Assembly: GCA_010405405.1 (NCBI GenBank)
Contig: MU004238.1
Coordinates: 1,561,530 to 1,625,529, forward strand
Reading direction: 5' to 3'
Origin: Microthyrium microscopicum
Taxonomy: Eukaryota
Length of the DNA stretch: 64,000 nucleotides
Under the pieces are notes generated by a model. The model was not told the origin of the DNA and did no database searches. It saw nothing but the letters and a program-made list of their open reading frames with translations. How positions within the stretch are numbered: position 1 is the first letter of the stretch; the number at the start of each line of letters is the position of its first letter. The translations under genes were made by a program, and so were the position numbers. Positions 37,861 through 48,298 of the stretch are shown one piece after another.

Positions 37861-38350
37861 TGTTTGTTTTTAGGATTGAGGATGGGGAATGGAGTTCGAT
37901 CCTTGAAGTGTTGATGGAGAACTAGAGCGGAGATTGATTAGATGGAGGTTTTTAAGTCCGTGATGGCTGGGAAAAATCATTGATGGTGGGGATGGTGGTT
38001 GGCAGGCACGACGGGAAGGCCAAGATGGGCTTTGAGACGGCTTGACTTTTCTTGACTTCTTGACTCTTTGGTCTTGACTTTACTTCATTCTTGTCTATAT
38101 TTGATATCTTCTACTTCTTTGCACATATCTGTTGATTCCTTGTCATTGTAACGACTCGCGCGCAAAAGATTTCTAGTCTCTACCAGGAAGCTCGCCAGCC
38201 GGATGATTCGGAAGCTCCAAAAGGTCCATTAATCGGAAAGCTTCGCTAACCGTGACTGAACTACTTGAGTTATTTCTCCCCTCGAATACATCAATTGACA
38301 GTTCGCTCGCGTCAGTCTCTGGGCCCTCGAGGCTCCTCGATCACAACAGA

Positions 38351-40005
38351 ATGGGACTCATCAACGTTCGAGATCTACTCGCCTTCCCAAATGGCGACAA
38401 CTCCACAGATACCGTCATTCGAGGCGCACATTTCAACTTGACGACACTCAAGTTTTTCAACTACACTCTATATTCCAACAATACGCTATCGAATAACTCT
38501 AATTGCTGGCTCATCTTGGACAACTATACACCCACTGCCCTCTACTCCAATGGCTCCTTCGTCAACGGCACATCATGCTACTCGCCCGTACTCCCTCTCG
38601 AGACTCGCGGTCGGCTCGGTGCCATATTCGGGGCCTTGTTCGGCATCAGTATAATGTTCACGCTTATAAACTTGAAAATGCATGGGCAACAATTCCTTCG
38701 CGAGGATAAGAGGTTCAGATTGGTCGGTCGGAGATGGCAGTGGTACTGGATGATCTTTATCGGCGCATGTGGAATGATAAGTTGCATAACTGGCATTGAT
38801 GTGGATCGAGATTATCTTCAAGATCTTGCTATAATATTGCAGAGTTTCTTCTACATGTGCATGGGACAATCCGCGGTTGCAGCTGTCTGGGAAGGAGTAA
38901 GACATTGGGGCAGTTGGCAGGAACGACAAATCGTGGACCGTGATCCTTTTTCATTGCCGCAAGATGATAAGAGAGGTCAAATTGAGTTTTACATGCCTCT
39001 GGTGTTTTACTTGTTTGATTTTATGGTAAGTCTCATGACATTGCTGATAGAATTCTTGCTAACACCCAACAGAGCTTCTTCCTCACAGCTCCACGATCAT
39101 GGACCAAGATCCCCAAACAAGGCGGCATCCAACAACAAACTACCGTCGCTGGCGTCGCTGCCACTGACGGCCGCTTCAAAGCCGGCGCCATCTTCCTCGG
39201 CCTTGCCTGGCTCGTCATCCTCTATTGTGTCAAGCACAACATTGCATACTACCGCTTACGCGCCCACCCCTCCCATGCTATGGAAAAACGCATGCTCAAC
39301 CCATTCACTGTCATCGGTGCCATCCGCTACTTACCACTGCGATTCATCCTCGCCATTCCTATCATAGCCGTACTCATCGGCTACAACAACGCCATGGCCT
39401 GGAACTTCAACATCAGCGTTATGAAGTACAACGTCGCTGTCGAGTGGCCTTACGCCCTCGGCTATGGGCCACCTCTACTTGTACTATTCATCTTCAATAT
39501 CTTCGGCTTCCTTGAGAGAAATGAGGACAAACAACTCATGCGGCAACGGGTAGACCGTGATCGTCGCGCAGATGAGTCATTGGGATATACGAAGAAACCT
39601 ACCTGGTGGAGCAAGGCGAGAGGCGATCACCATCTAGACGACATGTCACGTTTGCAGGATATGGTAGCTGACGAGGGCATCACGAGTACAGGTCCAAAGC
39701 GTGGTGGTGGGTATCAGGATGTGGAGCTCAAGGAGATGGGTGGACGACCACCGAATCCGCATCGGTCAACGTCCACGGCACGATTGACGGATGATGACGG
39801 CTTGCGCACGCGCAGTCCCGCCAGGGGACGGAACACGTCGTCTGTACGGACGGGCTCGTCTATGCTCTCGCCGGAGGCGGGAAGGCCACCGTGGCAGACT
39901 GATAGGTCGAATAGTCCGGGTGGGAACAGTATACTGACGACTGCGACGGGCACAACGCTGGCGGGTGAGAGGCAGCAGACAGTGAAGAGCATGCTGGATA
40001 TCTGA
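38351..40005 (+). CDS. Conserved fungal multi-pass membrane protein (DUF2434-like)
   Basis: HFNLTTL..NYTLYSNNTLSN, RLVGRRWQWYW, WEGVRHWGSWQERQ; intron about 39025-39073; several TM helices. Confidence 0.75.
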
Positions 40006-41679
40006 TAGGCGGTCAACTTGTTATGTTGGGCGGGTGCGTTTGGCATCACTGTGGAAAATGGAGTTTTATCACGCAGCATATTTAGTCTTTATGATGGACG
40101 GTGTGGCACATTCGTTGATACGTTAATGATTTCAATGTTAATAATTTATTGATTGCTTTAAGGCGTCAAATCTACATGTCTACACAGTGACTTCACAAAA
40201 TATCAACCGTTGCATTTTCGGAAATTTGGTCGCTGTCAGCAAATATGACGGAACAATGACGGAGATGACACCAAACTACAGATGATTGTTGTGCTGGCCC
40301 AAATCGAACCTCTCGCTGCGAAAATACGGTAGCATGCAATGAATAGTTCGACCTGAGTACCGTAGGCAGTCAAAAAGATGCACATTCGCGGTGATCCTGC
40401 TTGGGAGCCTTTCACTGCTGATGCATACGGACGAACCAGGTTTTCTATGGCATTTGCAGACTTTTTTTGGACCTGAGGATCCAGAGCAATGTTTTTAACT
40501 GGCGCAAGTTTAACTAGGTCTGAGCATTATTTTGCATCTTCGCGGCCGCCCAGGTTAGTGAGGGACAGGTTCGTTGGTGATTCAGTGAGCGGGTGGTCGG
40601 CTATTTCTGGTTTGGTCCCATACAAAGCAATTTGATATTGATGGAAGATGCATTTTCTGCAAATCCAACACAATTTACTGTTTTCAAGGATAAATTATAG
40701 GTATAGAATGATTGGATTATGCGTGCACAATAATTCTTTTTCGAAATAGAGTTTTCATTGTAACATAATCGTCCAGTGACTGATTGCTGCAGCTCCATCA
40801 AACCCCCCAATTCCGTATCGACGATAGGAGCCATAAGTTTGGTTGAGCTAAGCCTGTTCCTTGTGCGAGAGAGGAGCCGCTTTGTTGGTACTGTGATACA
40901 CGCGAGCCCGTCTTTCAGCATGATAACCGGTACACATCTTGAAAGCCTGAAATCAGTACCAGATTCCAACATCCTGAGCGGCCACACAATGCTGCCATAT
41001 GTAACAACCATATCCGATGCGCCTCATCCCTCTGTAATGTTTCATCATCAAGCAACTTACCTGCTGTATAATAGCAGTTGTTACTCAAGCCATGTTGCCC
41101 AGTGAGAGAGAATTATTTGATGAAGGCTGGGTACTGGAAGTTTTGTGCGGTACGCTATCAATTTTTCTTCGTCTACCTACCATGGATCCCCATCTCGTTC
41201 CCTTCGCAGCAAAACTTGGTACTCTCTGATGGATGAGTTTACTGATACCTTCTTGAACTGGTTTAGCGCAACTCTCGTCCAATATCTTGACACTGATGGC
41301 AGCGTTGGCGACGATACATGCCTTCTTCAAGCAGTTTAGCGCGGACTTTTTCTCAACATCAACACCGCAAACTCTGGTACGTGCCGTGCTCGACGATTGC
41401 TGATGCGCCGCCCTCTCGTACACACCTGTTCAGGCTTAGCGCGAAAGTTGGCCATCGCATCACTTGTCCCCCCTTCGGGGTACTTAAGGCCTCCTTCTCT
41501 CCGTTTCTTCTGTCTTTCTTTCTTTCTTCTCCATCCCTTCGGGGAAGCACCACTCACCACTATGTCTTCTTGACTCTGACATTTCCTTCTCCTTTGGCTG
41601 TCATGCCTTTTGGACTTGTCTTTCTTCTTTCTTTTTTTCTTTTTTTCCTCTTCAACATTCTTTCAACAACAACCTTCTC

Positions 41680-41940
41680 TTGACATGACTGTCGCTCCTT
41701 GACATCTCCACTGGTCTTTCACCATCACTGTCGCTCCTCACAATCACTGTCGGTCTTCAGCATCACCGTCGCTCCTCACCATCACTGTCAGTTTTGACAT
41801 CTCCACTGGTCTTTCACCATCACTGTCGCTCCTCACAATCACTGTCGCTCCTCACCATCACTGTCGGTCTTCATCATCACTGTCGCTCCTCACCATCACT
41901 GTCGGTCTTCATCATCACTGTCGCTCTCGACCATCAGCGT
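41680..41940 (+). repeat. 19-bp minisatellite (core ATCACTGTCG(C/G)TC), about 11 copies, with a ~95-bp higher-order duplication
   Basis: ATCACTGTCG recurs at 19-bp spacing (e.g. 41819, 41838, 41857, 41876, 41895, 41914); TTGACATCTCCACTGGTCTTTCACC occurs at about 41699 and 41794. Confidence 0.9.
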
Positions 41941-41969
41941 TCCTGTTCGCCATGGCATGTCTTCACTCT

Positions 41970-43817
41970 TGCCTGGGCCCTGACCGCACTCGAGGTTGGG
42001 GCCATAGGCGCTCTCGGCCCTTCGCTTGGGGTTGGCCAACTTCACTACCAACCCCGTGCGCCTTTCACGACACACTCTTGGGGCTGCCTGACGACCAATT
42101 TCCAGGTCGGCCCCACACGCCTCCGAGGACACCGTTCGCCTGGGGTTGGCCAACTTCACTGCCAACCTCGTGCGCTTTCACGACACACTCTTGGGGCTGC
42201 CTGATGACCAATTTCCAGGTCGGCCCCACACGCCTCCGAGGATACCGTTCGCCTGGGGTTGGCCAACTTCACTGCCAACCTCGTGCGCTTTCACGACACA
42301 CTCTTGGGGCTGCCTGATGACCAATTTCCAGGTCGGCCCCACACGCCTCCGAGGATACCGTTCGCCTGGGGTTGGCCAACTTCACTGCCAACCTCGTGCG
42401 CTTTCACGACACACTCTTGGGGCTGCCTGATGACCAATTTCCAGGTCGGCCCCACACGCTTCCGAGGATACCGTTCGCCTGGGGTTGGCCAACTTCACTG
42501 CCAACCTCGTGCGCTTTCACGACACACTCTCGGGGCTGCCTGATGACCAATTTCCAGGTCGGCCCCACACGCTTCCGAGGATACCGTCGCCTGGGGATTG
42601 GCCCACCTCACTGCCAATCCTCCAAGCTTTTCACGACACAACTTTCGGGGTTGCTTGATGACCAATTTCCAGGTGGCCCCACACGCTTCCGAGGCTTTCC
42701 TTTCGCTTGGGGATTGGCCCACTTCACTACCAATCCCCCAAGCCTTTCACGACAAACATCACCGGCTTGCGCCACGATCGCACTCGAGATCGTGGCGCCA
42801 AGCTATCCAACGACATGCTCACCGGCTTGCGCTTCGATCGCACTCGAGATCGGAGCGCCAAGCTCTTTCGGCCTTCGTCTGGGGCATCATCATCACCACA
42901 AAGATGGTGCCCACAGGCATTCCATCGACAAACATCACTGGCTTGCGCTTCGATCGCACTCGAGATCGGAGCGCCAGGCTCTTTCGGCCTTCGTCTGGGG
43001 CATCATCACCACTACAAAGATGGTGCCTGCAGGCATTCCATCGACAAACCTCACCGGCTTGCGCCACGATCGCACTCGAGATCGTGGCGACAGGCCATGC
43101 GACGACAAACATCATGAGCCAATCCGATGACCAATATTCGGATTGGCTCCCACGCTTTTTCGGCCATCGCATTGCAGTCTGGCACCACCAAAAAGCCGGA
43201 CTGCCATGCTATTCACAGACACCATCAACGCTTGCGCACTGATCGCACTCGAGCTCGGTGCGCCAAGCTTTCTCGGCCATTCGCTTGGAGAGTGGCATTA
43301 CCACCAAGCCGCTCTCCCAAGCTTTCATCGACGACAATCGCATCGGCTTCGACCGCACTCGAGGTTGGAGCCGCATGCGCTCTCGGCCATCCGCTTGGAG
43401 AGCGGCATTACCACCAAGCCGCTCTCCCAAGCTTTCATCAACAACATTCGCATGGGCTTCGACCGCACTCGAGGTTGGAGCCGCATGCGCTCTCGGCCAT
43501 CGCCTGGGCTTGATCACCACCACAAAGATTGAGCCCACAGGCGTCCCAACGACAACCATCACCGGCTTACGCCACGACCGCACTCGAGGTCGTGGCGATA
43601 GGCCATCCGAAGACAACCATCACCGGCTTGCGTCACGACCGCACTCGAGGTCGTGATGCCAGGCCATCGACGACATCATCAACGCATGGGCTTCAACCGC
43701 ACTCGAGGTTGGAGCCTACATGCGCTTTCGGCATCAACACCACCCACCACCACCACCACCAACCAAACAAAGCCAATGCTTGGGCTCTGGTCATACTCCA
43801 AGACCGGAGCCACAAGC
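41970..43817 (+). ncRNA. Putative structured non-coding RNA: array of about 30 covarying stem-loops with conserved loop classes
   Basis: Eleven hairpins with loop GCACTCGA, about 13 with CACCAC/CACT-rich loops and about 7 with (T/C)GACCAAT loops. Stems vary but keep pairing, with many G-T(U) pairs on the + strand. No coherent reading frame. Transcription is not shown by the sequence. Confidence 0.6.
42025..42745 (+). repeat. Tandem 113-bp repeat, about 6.3 copies (recently amplified two-hairpin unit)
   Basis: GTTGGCCAACTTCACT at 42031, 42145, 42258, 42371, 42484 (period 113-114), with more diverged copies at about 42596 and 42712. Confidence 0.95.
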
Positions 43818-44520
43818 CTCTCAAACAACCGGCGCTTGATGGGAGCGTGCCATTTATTTTGTCGATTCGTTGTCAGCAGCTTCGATTTCTTCGTCGCAGA
43901 CAAAACACGGAGTCCAGGGACAGCTCAATCGAGCCTCAAAGTCTCATGGCCAGCTCCGAGCATCAAGTGTGCAGATACCCAGATACCCCGGTGTCTCACG
44001 GAGTCAGTGACTTGTCACTGGCTCCGGGAGGCTCGTGCTCGCCAGTCTGTCAGCTTTCTGAGACGTCAGTTTGAAAACAGTTGGCGAGAGGATCCCTGCC
44101 GTACCAGCCTGTCACCATTTCAGTCTCCAGTGGATACCTCTGAAGACAGCCGGCGGGAGGCCTCGCAGGCCAACCCCCATTTCTGCCTTTTGTACACAGG
44201 TTCGTCCGAGCTTAAGGAGACTTGGGGGCGCTTGCAGCGAGGTTGGTGGACATTTCAGAGTTCAGACTTTCGTAAGCCTGCCGTTTCTCTGCATTTGGCT
44301 GATCACCAAATCAAAGCAGACCGAGGCAGGCTTGATTCTTCTTGGGCATTTCAGAGCCCCGTTTGCATTAGGTACGTATACGGTCGGTCGGGCATTTCAG
44401 AGCCCACTTCGCATACGCATACGCATACGTGGTAAGAATGATGTGGAAGAAGTCGAGGCGGTCGTGATGGCCCGGTCCACTGGGGCGTGGAGTCGGGTCA
44501 AGTCTTTGCGCATTTCGGAT

Positions 44521-44566
44521 TTTTCTGGACTTCTGGTTTCTGGTTTCTGGTTTCTGGTTTCTGGAC
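44521..44566 (+). repeat. (TTTCTGG)n heptamer microsatellite, about 6 copies
   Basis: TTTTCTGGACTTCTGGTTTCTGGTTTCTGGTTTCTGGTTTCTGGAC; a (GCATAC)3 run lies nearby at about 44411. Confidence 0.85.
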
Positions 44567-46042
44567 TGTAGACTCTCTGAATTGTAGAATGTAGATTCTG
44601 GCCTGTAGACTCTGGGATCTGGATTGCTCGGAACACAGTTCCTGACTTTCAAGCGTCTTGAGCATAAATCATTTTTTTAACAAGGGAATTTTTCCCGCAC
44701 CTTTATCTTTTACATTGTCTTCTCCACTTGTGGGGATTGCGAGGTAGATGATCAAGGTTCATGGTGAAGTGAATGGTAAGCAGCGATTCAAAAGCTTGGT
44801 CGACTTTCCGCGTCTTGGTTTTCTCTCGCAATCAGGAATGTTGTCCAGGAATGTGTCGTACTATGTGACGCTGTGGATGTGACGCTTCATCTTGAGTCCT
44901 TGACACTGCTTTGCTCCGAGCAAATTGCTCTCGAATAGGTGTAGAATGCTCTTCTCATCACATCCCGAGACCAGGAAGAATCCTTTCATGAAACGTATGC
45001 GGTAAAGTTTGTTGCAACATCATCTCCCCACATAGAAAGCTGAAAAGGGGTACAGGCAATTGAAGCACAGACATGAAGTTACGATGGAGCATTGCAGGGT
45101 TGGCCACTTCAGCAAAACCCCAAATTCCCAAGTCGCTCATCTTTAAGACGCTTGATTATGCTCCCGTTCGAGGCCTTTTCATATTCTGAAGAAGCCAAAC
45201 GGTAAATCTGATTTTTCTGGATTTTTGGAAAGTCTCCAAAAATAATTTCAAAGCGTGTAAATGTGGTAAATGAGACTCGATTATTCAATATCTTTTGCTT
45301 TTTGCTGTTGTGGAGTTGACAAGGAAGCCCCCTAAATTACTGGAGACTACTCCGTGCCCCTAAGTTAGTCACCCAAGAGCCCCCATAATTTAGCGACTCC
45401 AAAATGTCGACAAATAAGTATCTATTAGATTCTAAAGCTCAACGTCAACAACCACATTTAAGTGTCACTTTATAGCTTCATAATATCAAGCATAGCGCCA
45501 ATGTCGTTTTATTCATTGAAAAAGTTGGCTCGTTATGGTGTAATAAATGCTTTCAAAAAATGTGTTTCTTGCACTTTTTGATTTCGCCTTCAGACTTCAG
45601 CCTTGTCGTCAGCCTTGTTGATGGAGAGCAGATAGCTCAGGGTTTGATGTATGATCCAGCTGCTGTGCTGTGAGCCCAAAATCTAATGGGCACCTTGATC
45701 ACGTAAGAAATGGTGTTGTTCACTTCCTCGGCATGGTTCAAGCTCTTTTGTTCGTTAACCGTTCGAAGTGGGTGAGTGAATGCCGTTGTGTAATATGAAA
45801 GTATATCCCCACTCCCCATTCCAAGAAGAGCCATAACCTTGCACATATCCACATTCAACATGACAATTTCGAGAACAACGAATGCAAGACATAAAAGTAA
45901 GAATCGTATTCGCTGTCAGCTAACCCGATCATATCATCATAGCCTCGCGGCTCATGTATCTAAGAAGGTATATAGAACTATATCAGCAAAAGCATATAAA
46001 CCCATAAATCAAAGCCCAGGTCTAAAACTCCATATCCCATCA

Positions 46043-47240
46043 TTACACAGTGTCTCCATTTCCTCGTCTAAACCGGCTAAATAGTCCCTTCTTCGCCTTT
46101 TTCACATGGACAGGTGGTGTCGGGTTTGCAGCAGCTTGCGCATTCAACTTCGCCATCTCATTATAGTCGAATGGTTGGTTCCAGCGATGCATTGGAATTT
46201 CGCCCAGCTTCGTACTATCTGACGCAAACGTGTATAAAGACGGCGTCATCTTGTCCATTCTGCGTCGTCTTATCTCTTCGAGTGGATCGCGGCCTCCTGA
46301 CAGTGTATGTTTGTGGGACGCCTTCTGTGCTGGCGATTTAGTCTCACGACCATGGCTTGTTGTGGGCCGGTGATGCGAGTACTGGGGAGGTGAAGGTGGT
46401 GGTGTTGGGAGCGCAGATGATTGGCCATATGCGAGATTTGGTACGCTTTTGTTACTGGGTAGTTCGTAGAGCGGTGTCAGTGGTGGAGAAGCTGCTGGTG
46501 TTGGTGGAGCGGCTTGATATCTTGGAGCAGTGGAGCGAGAGGATTGCGATGTTTGTGAATTCAGTGATTGTGAGGATTGGAGGCGAGAACTCGATGGTGT
46601 CTTTTTGCGTACATGTGGTCTTATGATTGCTAGTTGAGGAGCAGATGCATTTGCGCTTTCGACGCGGCGGATTATGGAAATCTTGCTGTCTAGGCGAGTA
46701 TCTCGCTTCTTATCCGTCTTCTTTTTGGCAGCCTTGTCTAATTTTGTGGATGGTTTCAGGAGGTTGAGACTTGAGCGGGAGAGTCGGTATGATAGCTGGC
46801 TGAGAGCATCGATGGCTTCCATCCTAGATGTCTCTGAGAGACTTGTCAATCTCCCATAATCCAGATCACCACCCTTCTTGCCACCACTTAGGAAAGTCGA
46901 AATGATTGAAACGAGGCCGTTGTTCAATTTCAGTAACACGGCTGTTAAGGAAGCGTGTACTTTCGCTTTCATACAATTAGTTTTCAGTCATTCTATGATC
47001 CAGAAAAAGCTTACTATCGCCCTCCCTAAACCTCTCTCCTTGCAATGCGTAATTCTTCGAGTACTCCGCATGTATATCCAATGGCCCCTTCTTCAAACTC
47101 GAGCTCAACCTCGTCTCGTCCAACGCCGCCTTCTCCTCCTTCTTGCGCTTTCTCCTCTTCTTCAACTTCTTGAACACATCCAACCCACTCGTAAACGACG
47201 TTATAAGCGCCAACACCGACGAATCCGTACTCTGCGCCAT
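46043..47240 (-). CDS. Hypothetical protein (basic, Ser/Pro-rich C-terminus), 2 exons
   Basis: Exon 1 MAQSTDSSVLALITSFTSGLDVFKKL..GERFREGD, intron about 46968-47014, exon 2 containing YTFASDSTKLGEIPMHRW. Confidence 0.7.
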
Positions 47241-48298
47241 AATCCTCAACGCACCGTGAAAGCAACTGCGAAAGCCAAAGATGAACGACCGAGGGGTACA
47301 AAGAGCGGGGAGAGGTAAACAGCAGCAAGTTTCACATCGCAACAATCAAAGCTTCCGCCCCTCGACCTTTAAACCATCGCGCCTCGCGCGCAGTCAGGCT
47401 GAATAAACCAGGATAAGCCTTGTGATGCAGAAGATAGCTCAAGCGCTTAGCCCCGCTGCAAAGCGAACAGAACTTACACAGGCTGCCGAACCAACCGGAT
47501 CGCCAACCTGCGTCGCTGCAGCACCTGGTCATGGCTAGATGCATAGTGCTTTGGCCCATTTAATGCCCTGCTTTGGCGGGCCGTTGTGAGTGGGCAATGG
47601 TTCAAGCTTTGGCAATGGTGTGACTCCACACTGTGCTTTGGACCTGTTCCTGGACGCATGTGTGATAAAGGGGGACTGTTTTTAGGACAGGTAGGAGGAG
47701 AGTATTGATGCATGCTGGTCTTGATGTGCATAGAGGTTTTGTGGGCTTGATGAGAGGCCGTTGGCATGTGGTGAGTCTGTGTCTGCAAGGCGAAGATGCA
47801 GAGCGGGAAGAGCCTTGAATTGGCGACTGGCATAGCGTCAGACCAGGCAAAAAGGCCAATACTTCTGTAGTTTTGGCAAGTTATTGTGCTCTTGGCGGAT
47901 AATTTGAGAGTTTTTTAGTTCAATAAAAGGTGCGATATGTCTGCATGAACCGTGATTGGTGACTCAGACACGCATCTACACAATAAAATTCCAGCCTTCG
48001 AGTTTCTGATGCTGGACGTGACGATACACTAATACACCACTAAATTACTGCAACTTCGCACACTACAAGATAATATTGAAGACTTCTGTTAATATGATAC
48101 ACTGTCATGTTTCCGCGCAAGTCGACGTGAGTTCAAAATGCTCTTGATCATTGATAGTCTCAGTAATGTTATATTGCTTCATTATTCAGGCTCTGTAATG
48201 CGAACCATATGCACAAAACCCCATCTCGCGCCATGCTATGCAAAAAACTTCAATAAGTGCTAGTGGGTATCCAGAACGCCATATCATGCAAGTCTTGT

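Follow-up and report, generated by a model that had tools for sequence, protein, structure and literature searches.

A Strand-Specific Hairpin Array with an Invariant Loop in Microthyrium microscopicum, a Candidate Multivalent Docking RNA

Introduction

What kind of element presents the same eight-nucleotide loop eleven times, on stems that differ from one another, at a single locus in a fungal genome? The question is raised by a 64,000-nucleotide (nt) stretch from Microthyrium microscopicum (GenBank assembly GCA_010405405.1, contig MU004238.1, positions 1,561,530 to 1,625,529 of the forward strand), which is referred to here in its full length as the window and is numbered from its first letter. 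A preliminary description of this DNA had noted a series of hairpins, termed class A, with an unchanging loop, had taken the loop to be a sequence-specific recognition site, and had put forward two ideas as to its use, a ligand for an RNA recognition motif (RRM) of the U1A type and pairing between the loops themselves. Herein we describe the array of hairpins to which class A belongs (Table 1). We propose, with moderate confidence, that this array is an uncatalogued fungal + strand long non-coding RNA (lncRNA) in which a single sequence-specific factor acting in trans, most probably a protein, docks at the 11 class A loops. To our knowledge, few fungal lncRNAs have a defined structure or mechanism.

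The Class A Loop

The motif CGCACTCGAG is found as 11 exact copies in the window, all of them on the + strand, where 0.13 copies are expected by chance, and none of 100 shuffles reached 11, the largest count in any of them being 1. The copies start at positions 41985, 42779, 42839, 42955, 43071, 43244, 43354, 43464, 43579, 43640, and 43698, with the 8-nt loops beginning one base later, and these exact matches confirm every one of the 11 positions at which an invariant loop had been reported. The loop is GCACUCGA in 11/11 copies and the pair that closes it is CG in 11/11. When up to two mismatches are allowed, the window contains 70 matches to CGCACTCGAG compared to 51.7 expected, and on the + strand between 41950 and 43830 there are no variants with one or two mismatches, just the 11 exact copies. 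The eight minus-strand matches in the same interval are the overlapping palindrome read backwards, while the + strand matches with two mismatches at 41922 and 43924 lie just beyond the array and neither is in the list of hairpins. Since there are no degenerate copies within the array, the invariance of the loop is not an artefact of searching for an exact word.

An alignment of the 11 class A units with 40-nt flanks has a mean column identity of 67%, and its longest invariant run is the 10 columns that comprise the closing C, the eight loop letters and the closing G, the next longest run being only two columns. Given 10 invariant columns amid a mean identity of 67%, the class A loop is under selection. 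The class A copies are all paralogues within a single array and include recent duplicates, the third being the same as the fourth, the second close to the fifth, and the seventh close to the eighth, such that the independent class A lineages number about 7, not 11.

Class A Stems and the Hairpin Scaffold

All 11 class A copies form hairpins. In the upper stem, standard pairs occupy 99.1% of 111 cells and 6 of the 11 pairs have changed on both sides, and with RNAfold every class A hairpin reaches about 15–16 base pairs (bp) with one bulged base on the 3′ side. A 15-bp model consisting of 10 bp, a 1-nt 3′ bulge (2 nt in copy 11) and a further 5 bp has paired bases in 98.8% of its 165 cells, 8 of the 15 pairs being altered on both sides. 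The covariation score of class A is 0.51 compared to 0.22 after shuffling, and 0 of 500 shuffles scored as high. This control ignores the kinship of the copies, while a second control, in which the pairing partner is slid by 1–3 columns, corrects for their relatedness, and here class A pairing falls to 29–39% of cells. Class D covaries more strongly than class A, with 60 of 60 cells paired (100%), two-sided changes at 8 of 10 pairs, and again no shuffle among 500 as high. The covariation in classes A and D shows that stem pairing is under selection.

The claim in the preliminary description that the loop has no substitutions while the stems turn over is therefore upheld, with 10 invariant columns on the one hand and 8 of 15 stem pairs changed on both sides on the other. 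The class A stems noted there are also borne out and the hairpins are real, but their 15-bp length and the bulge at a fixed position had been missed, and it had been overlooked that they are members of a five-class array with a common scaffold and with conserved cores in both the 5′ and the 3′ linkers.

Organization of the Array

The order of the hairpins along the array is ABCBCBCBCBCBCBAADADACDADADADAAAE, and the spacing between loop centers is 52–62 nt in 30 of the 31 intervals, the last being 94 nt. A window-wide scan for hairpins in 1-kb bins gave 39 and 50 entries in the two bins at 42–44 kb versus 0–10 in each of the other 62; these entries include overlapping registers of one and the same hairpin, and curation led to the 32 hairpins listed here. 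No further copy of the array was found by blastn elsewhere in the 64-kb window. Tandem Repeats Finder (TRF) resolves the array into families with periods of 113 (6.3 copies), 116, 110, and 61 nt and 87–94% matches, and the span occupied by the 113-nt units contains 7 class B and 6 class C hairpins. The scaffold of 10 bp, a 3′ bulge of 1–2 nt and 5 bp is common to classes A, D, and E, while class C differs and class B has a 1×1 internal loop.

As judged by reading the sequences, the 113-nt unit with its B and C hairpins and the 110/116-nt units with their D and A hairpins appear to be homologous linker by linker. Classes A and C would therefore represent one position of an ancestral two-hairpin unit and classes B and D the other, the loops having been replaced, and indeed the homologous scaffold appears to have exchanged its loops, in that B and C sit at unit positions that match D and A. 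The linker that follows class A and class C hairpins has a conserved core, T[CT]TCGGCC, at 42012, 42866, 42982, 43158, 43271, 43381, and 43491. Seven of the eight + strand occurrences of this core in the window lie within the array and the minus strand has none, and hence the linkers are not free to vary either.

The regularity of the array would also suit a processing substrate, in which an RNase III-type enzyme or another nuclease that is structure-specific cuts the bulged hairpins of 15 bp and the array serves as a small-RNA precursor or a self-limiting transcript. Classes A, D, and E have a uniform stem length with the bulge fixed 10 bp from the loop, and the pitch of the hairpins is regular. 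However, 15-bp stems are short as substrates for Dicer, the linkers, at about 20 nt, do not have the length of small nucleolar RNAs (snoRNAs), and a nuclease of the ruler type has no need of an invariant loop, making this a very unlikely explanation.

Table 1. Features of the hairpin array and of the sequence directly upstream (positions are those of the window).
Feature	Position or copies	Strand	Description
Hairpin array	41976..43811	+	32 hairpins, five loop classes, about 1.85 kb
Class A	11 copies		Loop GCACTCGA
Class B	7 copies		Loop CAACTTCACT and 3 variants
Class C	7 copies		Loop ATGACCAATTTC in 5; 2 variants, one ACGACC and one TGACCAATAT
Class D	6 copies		11-nt loop of the A[TC][TC]ACCAC type, 5 variants
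Class E (last hairpin)	43783..43811, 1 copy	+	Loop ATACTCCAA; scaffold of 10 bp, bulge, 5 bp
Class A hairpin 1	41976..42003	+	Upper stem GGCCCTGACC/GGTTGGGGCC, loop GCACTCGA; fold −26.8 kcal/mol, z −4.9
Class A hairpin 2	42769..42798	+	11 perfect base pairs; fold −28.5 kcal/mol, z −6.5
Class A hairpin 3	42829..42858	+	
Class A hairpin 4	42945..42974	+	Stem identical to hairpin 3; 116-nt unit duplicate
Class A hairpin 5	43062..43089	+	
Class A hairpin 6	43234..43263	+	One U.C mismatch beside the closing pair
Class A hairpin 7	43344..43373	+	Two G.U pairs
Class A hairpin 8	43455..43482	+	
Class A hairpin 9	43570..43597	+	
Class A hairpin 10	43630..43659	+	
Class A hairpin 11	43687..43718	+	
Tandem 113-nt units, 6.3 copies	42021..42745	+	TRF, 94% matches; one class B and one class C hairpin per unit
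Class D span	42882..43537	+	Hairpins at 42882, 42998, 43172, 43285, 43395, and 43505, interleaved with class A
Seventh class C hairpin	43116–43149	+	Within the class D span
19-nt unit (TCACCATCACTGTCGCTCC), 11.5 tandem copies	41719..41936	+	TRF; directly upstream of the hairpins
C/T-rich tract	41480..41690	+	Directly upstream of the 19-nt repeats; read directly

Strand Asymmetry and Predicted Folding

The stems of 26 hairpins contain 248 Watson-Crick pairs, 30 G.U pairs and no A.C pairs, together with 10 others that are mostly at the ends of stems, and when identical copies are collapsed the 20 distinct upper stems still contain 20 G.U and 0 A.C. As each G.U pair on the + strand would be an A.C mismatch on the other strand, this asymmetry in the wobble pairs points to an RNA read from the + strand. 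Changes from G to A on the + strand are found solely with a compensating change (for example, one pair is CG in 5 copies, UA in 5, and AU in 1), which argues against a purely mutational explanation. Each of the four class A hairpins that were tested has a more favorable fold than its reverse complement, with + strand z values of −4.9 to −7.2, and the energies of fold and reverse complement are −26.8 and −20.7 kcal/mol for hairpin 1, −28.5 and −26.7 for hairpin 2, −26.7 and −18.9 for hairpin 7, and −25.7 and −20.9 for hairpin 11. In both the minimum free energy and the centroid folds, the + strand is a string of separate hairpins with their loops open. In the + strand centroid, G makes up 8.5% of the 913 unpaired nt compared to 37.9% of the 958 paired nt, and the linkers and loops thus lack the base through which they could mispair. 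The wobble asymmetry and the G-poor unpaired positions both point to selection on a + strand RNA.

These data bear directly on whether the array could be a hairpin-prone minisatellite without any RNA function, in which slippage or unequal exchange would have amplified a unit with inverted repeats, complementarity of the arms would have been kept up at the level of DNA, and the loop would look fixed because the copies are young. The region is built of tandem families with 87–94% matches, several class A copies are plain duplicates, and no relatives of the array were found in protein-level and metagenome searches (see below), all of which would fit a minisatellite. However, homogenization at the DNA level predicts no strand preference whereas 30 G.U and 0 A.C pairs are observed, and it leaves both the depletion of G at unpaired positions and the constant position of the bulge unexplained. 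Moreover, class A copies span four unit families and have compensated differences at 8 of 15 stem pairs, and while the identity of the class A units is 67% overall there are 0 changes in the 10 loop columns. We therefore consider a minisatellite of this kind to be unlikely.

Candidate Readers of the Class A Loop

If the class A loop is a recognition site, the next question is what might read it. The preliminary description pointed to the resemblance between GCACUC and part of the loop of stem-loop II in U1 small nuclear RNA (snRNA), and on these grounds the class A hairpins would be ligands of an RRM of the U1A/U2B″ family. The letters GCACUC are indeed common to the class A loop and the 3′ part of the U1 loop, and the C-G closing pair found in 11/11 class A copies is what the U1A site requires. 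According to PMC2203988, U1A is highly specific and makes contact with the heptamer AUUGCAC and with the closing C-G pair, and replacing A1 by G alone costs 5.0 kcal/mol. Only GCAC of this heptamer is found in the class A loop, AUU being absent from 11/11 copies, and the loop is of 8 nt compared to 10 nt in the U1A site. The letters that precede the loop, which read AUC in 5 copies but ACC in the other 6, belong to the stem and are base-paired and not conserved. The likeness to U1 stem-loop II is that of a C-G-closed loop containing GCAC(UC) (PMC2203988), while the class A hairpins differ in having an 8-nt loop that is without the AUU half and in forming 11 tandem copies outside any snRNA. A U1A/U2B″ ligand is highly improbable and the proposal is not supported, but the more general idea that the class A loop is a recognition site stands, as it fits the loop invariance, the stem covariation and the + strand wobbles.

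RNA molecules can also associate with themselves by means of their loops, as is the case with the dimerization loops of retroviruses and of oskar, and the class A loops could conceivably pair through CUCGAG, either within or between RNAs, which would make the transcript more compact or give rise to a network or granule of RNA. The palindrome, which had been pointed out in the same description as CTCGAG, is present in 11/11 class A copies. The loops are open in the predicted folds, and 11 mutually compatible loops would need to be identical, which is consistent with their invariance. The final G of the palindrome, however, is part of the closing pair, leaving only UCGA as 4 self-complementary letters in the 8-nt loop, and pairing between loops therefore either needs the closing pair to be opened or rests on UCGA alone. 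The invariant GCA on the 5′ side of the loop is also left unexplained by self-pairing. In addition, classes B, D, and E are without the palindrome, and as their loops are non-palindromic, and the loops in general are G-poor and, as judged from their sequences, not mutually pairable, pairing is not the logic of the array as a whole. Kissing-loop hairpins such as the dimerization initiation site (DIS) of HIV-1 and the loop in the oskar 3′ untranslated region (3′UTR) resemble class A in having a 6-nt palindrome atop a hairpin, but the class A palindrome is only partly in the loop, is found 11 times per RNA, and is flanked by loop classes that are not palindromic. Overall, pairing via CUCGAG is a conceivable but unlikely function of the class A loops.

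A Proposed Multivalent Docking RNA

Our preferred interpretation is that the array represents a docking RNA. We propose that one structured + strand RNA, at least about 2.1 kb in length, carries all 11 of the GCACUCGA hairpins. Such a transcript would have a C/T-rich leader near 41.5–41.7 kb, then eleven unstructured 19-nt repeats, and then 32 independently folding hairpins about 58 nt apart, with the G-poor single-stranded linkers serving to keep neighboring hairpins from interfering with each other. The scaffold would display one of five loop sequences, and in class A a docking site, present in 11 equivalents, would be made up of the loop, its closing C-G pair and the bulge at its fixed distance. 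The partner would be a factor acting in trans, most probably a protein for which the loop is presented on a stem whose geometry is fixed, and this would make the RNA a multivalent scaffold or sponge, with the other loop classes serving other readers. The array would grow and diversify as units of about 57 and 110–116 nt are duplicated in tandem and loops are replaced. The features expected of a scaffold or sponge, namely tandem structured modules with a conserved and exposed motif, are all found in the array, the exposure being that seen in the predicted folds. Moreover, as judged by reading the loops, four of the five loop classes are neither self-complementary nor complementary to one another, and an outside reader is therefore favored over a purely internal RNA-RNA network.

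The known RNAs closest in design are the repeat modules of scaffold lncRNAs, such as the Xist A-repeat, the roX stem-loops and the NORAD units, which like the proposed transcript are non-coding and have tandem short conserved hairpin modules, linkers with low structure, and a multitude of equivalent sites at which one protein can dock. The array has no sequence similarity to any of these, and differs from them in being fungal, in having 32 hairpins with a bulged 15-bp scaffold, five loops and a pitch of about 58 nt, and in that both transcript and partner are putative. The bacterial sponge RNAs of the CsrB/RsmZ type are another parallel since they too have many hairpins with one invariant loop motif on variable stems, and in their case the loops titrate a loop-reading protein. 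However, these RNAs have GGA loops, much shorter stems and a length of 100–350 nt, whereas the M. microscopicum array is at a eukaryotic nuclear locus, has an 8-nt loop, and extends over about 1.85 kb.

Several points weigh against a docking RNA. Recent tandem duplication inflates the copy counts, with about 7 lineages in class A and four of the seven class B copies being identical. Both the transcript and its docking partner are hypothetical, and there is no gene for an RNA-binding protein beside the array. The class B and class D loops vary somewhat, so the constraint is unequal among the loops. No orthologous array turned up in the protein-level and metagenome searches, and the conservation is all among paralogues of one locus. 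A strand-biased process of C-to-T mutation could add to the excess of G.U pairs. Finally, the total folding energy over 1.1 kb is equal on the two strands, −501 kcal/mol for the + strand and −503 kcal/mol for the minus strand. The minus strand attains its energy through long-range and irregular pairing, and given the equal bulk energies, the choice of strand is based on the wobble asymmetry and the folds of single hairpins and not on bulk energy.

A more elaborate version of the docking RNA, which we offer tentatively as possible rather than probable, is that the transcript would act as a display array. Here a scaffold copied 32 times at about 58 nt would carry five interchangeable loop codes and so assemble a defined mix of several loop-reading factors, with class A in addition zipping RNAs together via CUCGAG, and new specificities would arise by unit duplication and loop swaps. 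If this were true, the array would be a combinatorial ribonucleoprotein scaffold of a kind that has not been described in fungi.

In any event, the locus is a testable candidate for a fungal lncRNA, with 11 identical loops, a straightforward design for mutants in which the loops are scrambled and the stems kept, and four further loop classes as internal controls. Should a partner be found, the array would be a fungal counterpart of the repeat-based scaffold or sponge RNAs, and also a natural example of hairpin arrays that diversify by loop replacement. If it proves to be untranscribed, there would still be an unusual strand-specific pairing constraint in a minisatellite that needs an explanation.

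Genomic Context and Known Classes of Element

The array lies within a gap of about 6 kb between genes, with a + strand DUF2434 gene that ends at 40005 on one side and a convergent minus-strand gene (309 residues) that ends at 46043 on the other, and no convincing open reading frame is present in the flanks at 40010–41690 and 43830–46040. The genes of the window are ordinary fungal nuclear and housekeeping genes, including those for a RasGEF, a TPR protein, POM152, an ESCO acetyltransferase, ubiquitin hydrolases and a P450. The array itself is not a protein-coding repeat since the periods of 113, 116, 110, and 61 nt are not multiples of 3, and its long + strand open frames are an effect of composition. 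Pfam gave 0 families for three frames of the array, none of 92 candidates scored in a protein-level search with these frames that was aimed at spurious open frames called on orthologous arrays, and in an exhaustive search of 1.84 billion representatives the frames gave one match (P0001, E 1e-6), which is an unrelated repetitive protein.

Searches for related RNA elements were similarly negative. With Rfam 15, no family was found on either strand over 38000–48000, the single match up to an E value of 1 being MIR2933 with 22.3 bits compared to a gathering threshold of 70 (E 0.62), and ARAGORN found 0 tRNA genes in the whole window. When metagenomes were scanned for pairs of class A motifs 90–120 nt apart, at least 119 loci were obtained, and among those listed there were none with the motif in a hairpin and none with blastn similarity to the array. 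In the best 40 of these at least 119 loci, flanking complementarity reached 6 bp at one motif in two loci (L036 and L059) and was otherwise 4 bp or less. These metagenome loci with paired motifs are chance occurrences or unrelated repeats. In the literature on tandem stem-loop lncRNAs in filamentous fungi and on GCACUCGA, no such element was described among the matches listed, subscription journals being outside the coverage, and the listed papers matching GCACUCGA concern, to judge from their titles, neither fungi nor RNA hairpins.

Several known types of element were considered and rejected. The UGAUGA of the class C loops recalls a C/D snoRNA, but the motif is inside the loop and, by eye, there is neither a separate D box nor a terminal stem, while the stems are without the internal pocket of an H/ACA snoRNA, again by eye. 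A Zn2Cys6 CGG-repeat or other DNA site does not agree with arms that vary around a fixed center and with mismatches that are strand-specific, and a CRISPR-like arrangement does not agree with ‘repeats’ that vary and ‘spacers’ that are semi-conserved. The Ssd1 protein was also considered since the array has CCAACU in its class B loops and pyrimidine-rich linkers, and Ssd1 sites in fungal 5′UTRs are described as a structural motif together with pyrimidine-rich single-stranded sequence (PMC8934651; bioRxiv 10.64898/2026.08.03.741543). The Ssd1 motif CNYUCNYU is not enriched, with 4 occurrences in 41951–43830 compared to a mean of 2.97 (and a maximum of 10) in 500 shuffles, and there are 7 more in the upstream C/T-rich tract, as the composition of this tract predicts. 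The array thus belongs to no catalogued family among those tested.

Flanking Repeats and Minor Observations

The sequence upstream of the hairpins is also repetitive. The 19-nt unit TCACCATCACTGTCGCTCC alternates with a GGTCTT variant and hence has a period of 38 as well, and the repeats at 41719–41936 have almost no pairing in the predicted fold. The sequence CATCACYG is common to these repeats and the linker in front of class A hairpins, and 12 of the 15 + strand matches to this motif in the window are in 41690–43830. The 19-nt repeats may, in terms of the predicted fold, represent a second repeated site that is single-stranded. The region further upstream (41000–41700) contains 34.5% T and 28.7% C, and its C/T-rich tract is a possible promoter or leader of the putative + strand transcript.

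Four other observations concern the array and the sequence downstream. A CCA/CAC-rich tract (CACCACCCACCACCACCACCACCAACCAAAC) at 43739–43775, located after the last class A hairpin and before that of class E, resembles the core of the class D loop, ACCACCA. Among the copies of the 113-nt unit (42091 versus 42204–42658, and 42100–42480), several differences on the + strand are by reading C-to-T (ACGACC/ATGACC, GACACC/GATACC, and GCCTCC/GCTTCC), which could reflect repeat-induced or transcription-linked deamination. About 190 nt past the array there is an isolated strong hairpin (43999–44026) of 12 bp, 11 of them Watson-Crick and one G.U, with a CTTG loop, and this could mark the 3′ end or a processing site of the putative transcript. 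Lastly, GCATTTCAGAG is found three times on the + strand within 150 nt at 44250–44402, and its total of 4 in the window compared to 1.9 expected is weakly unusual.

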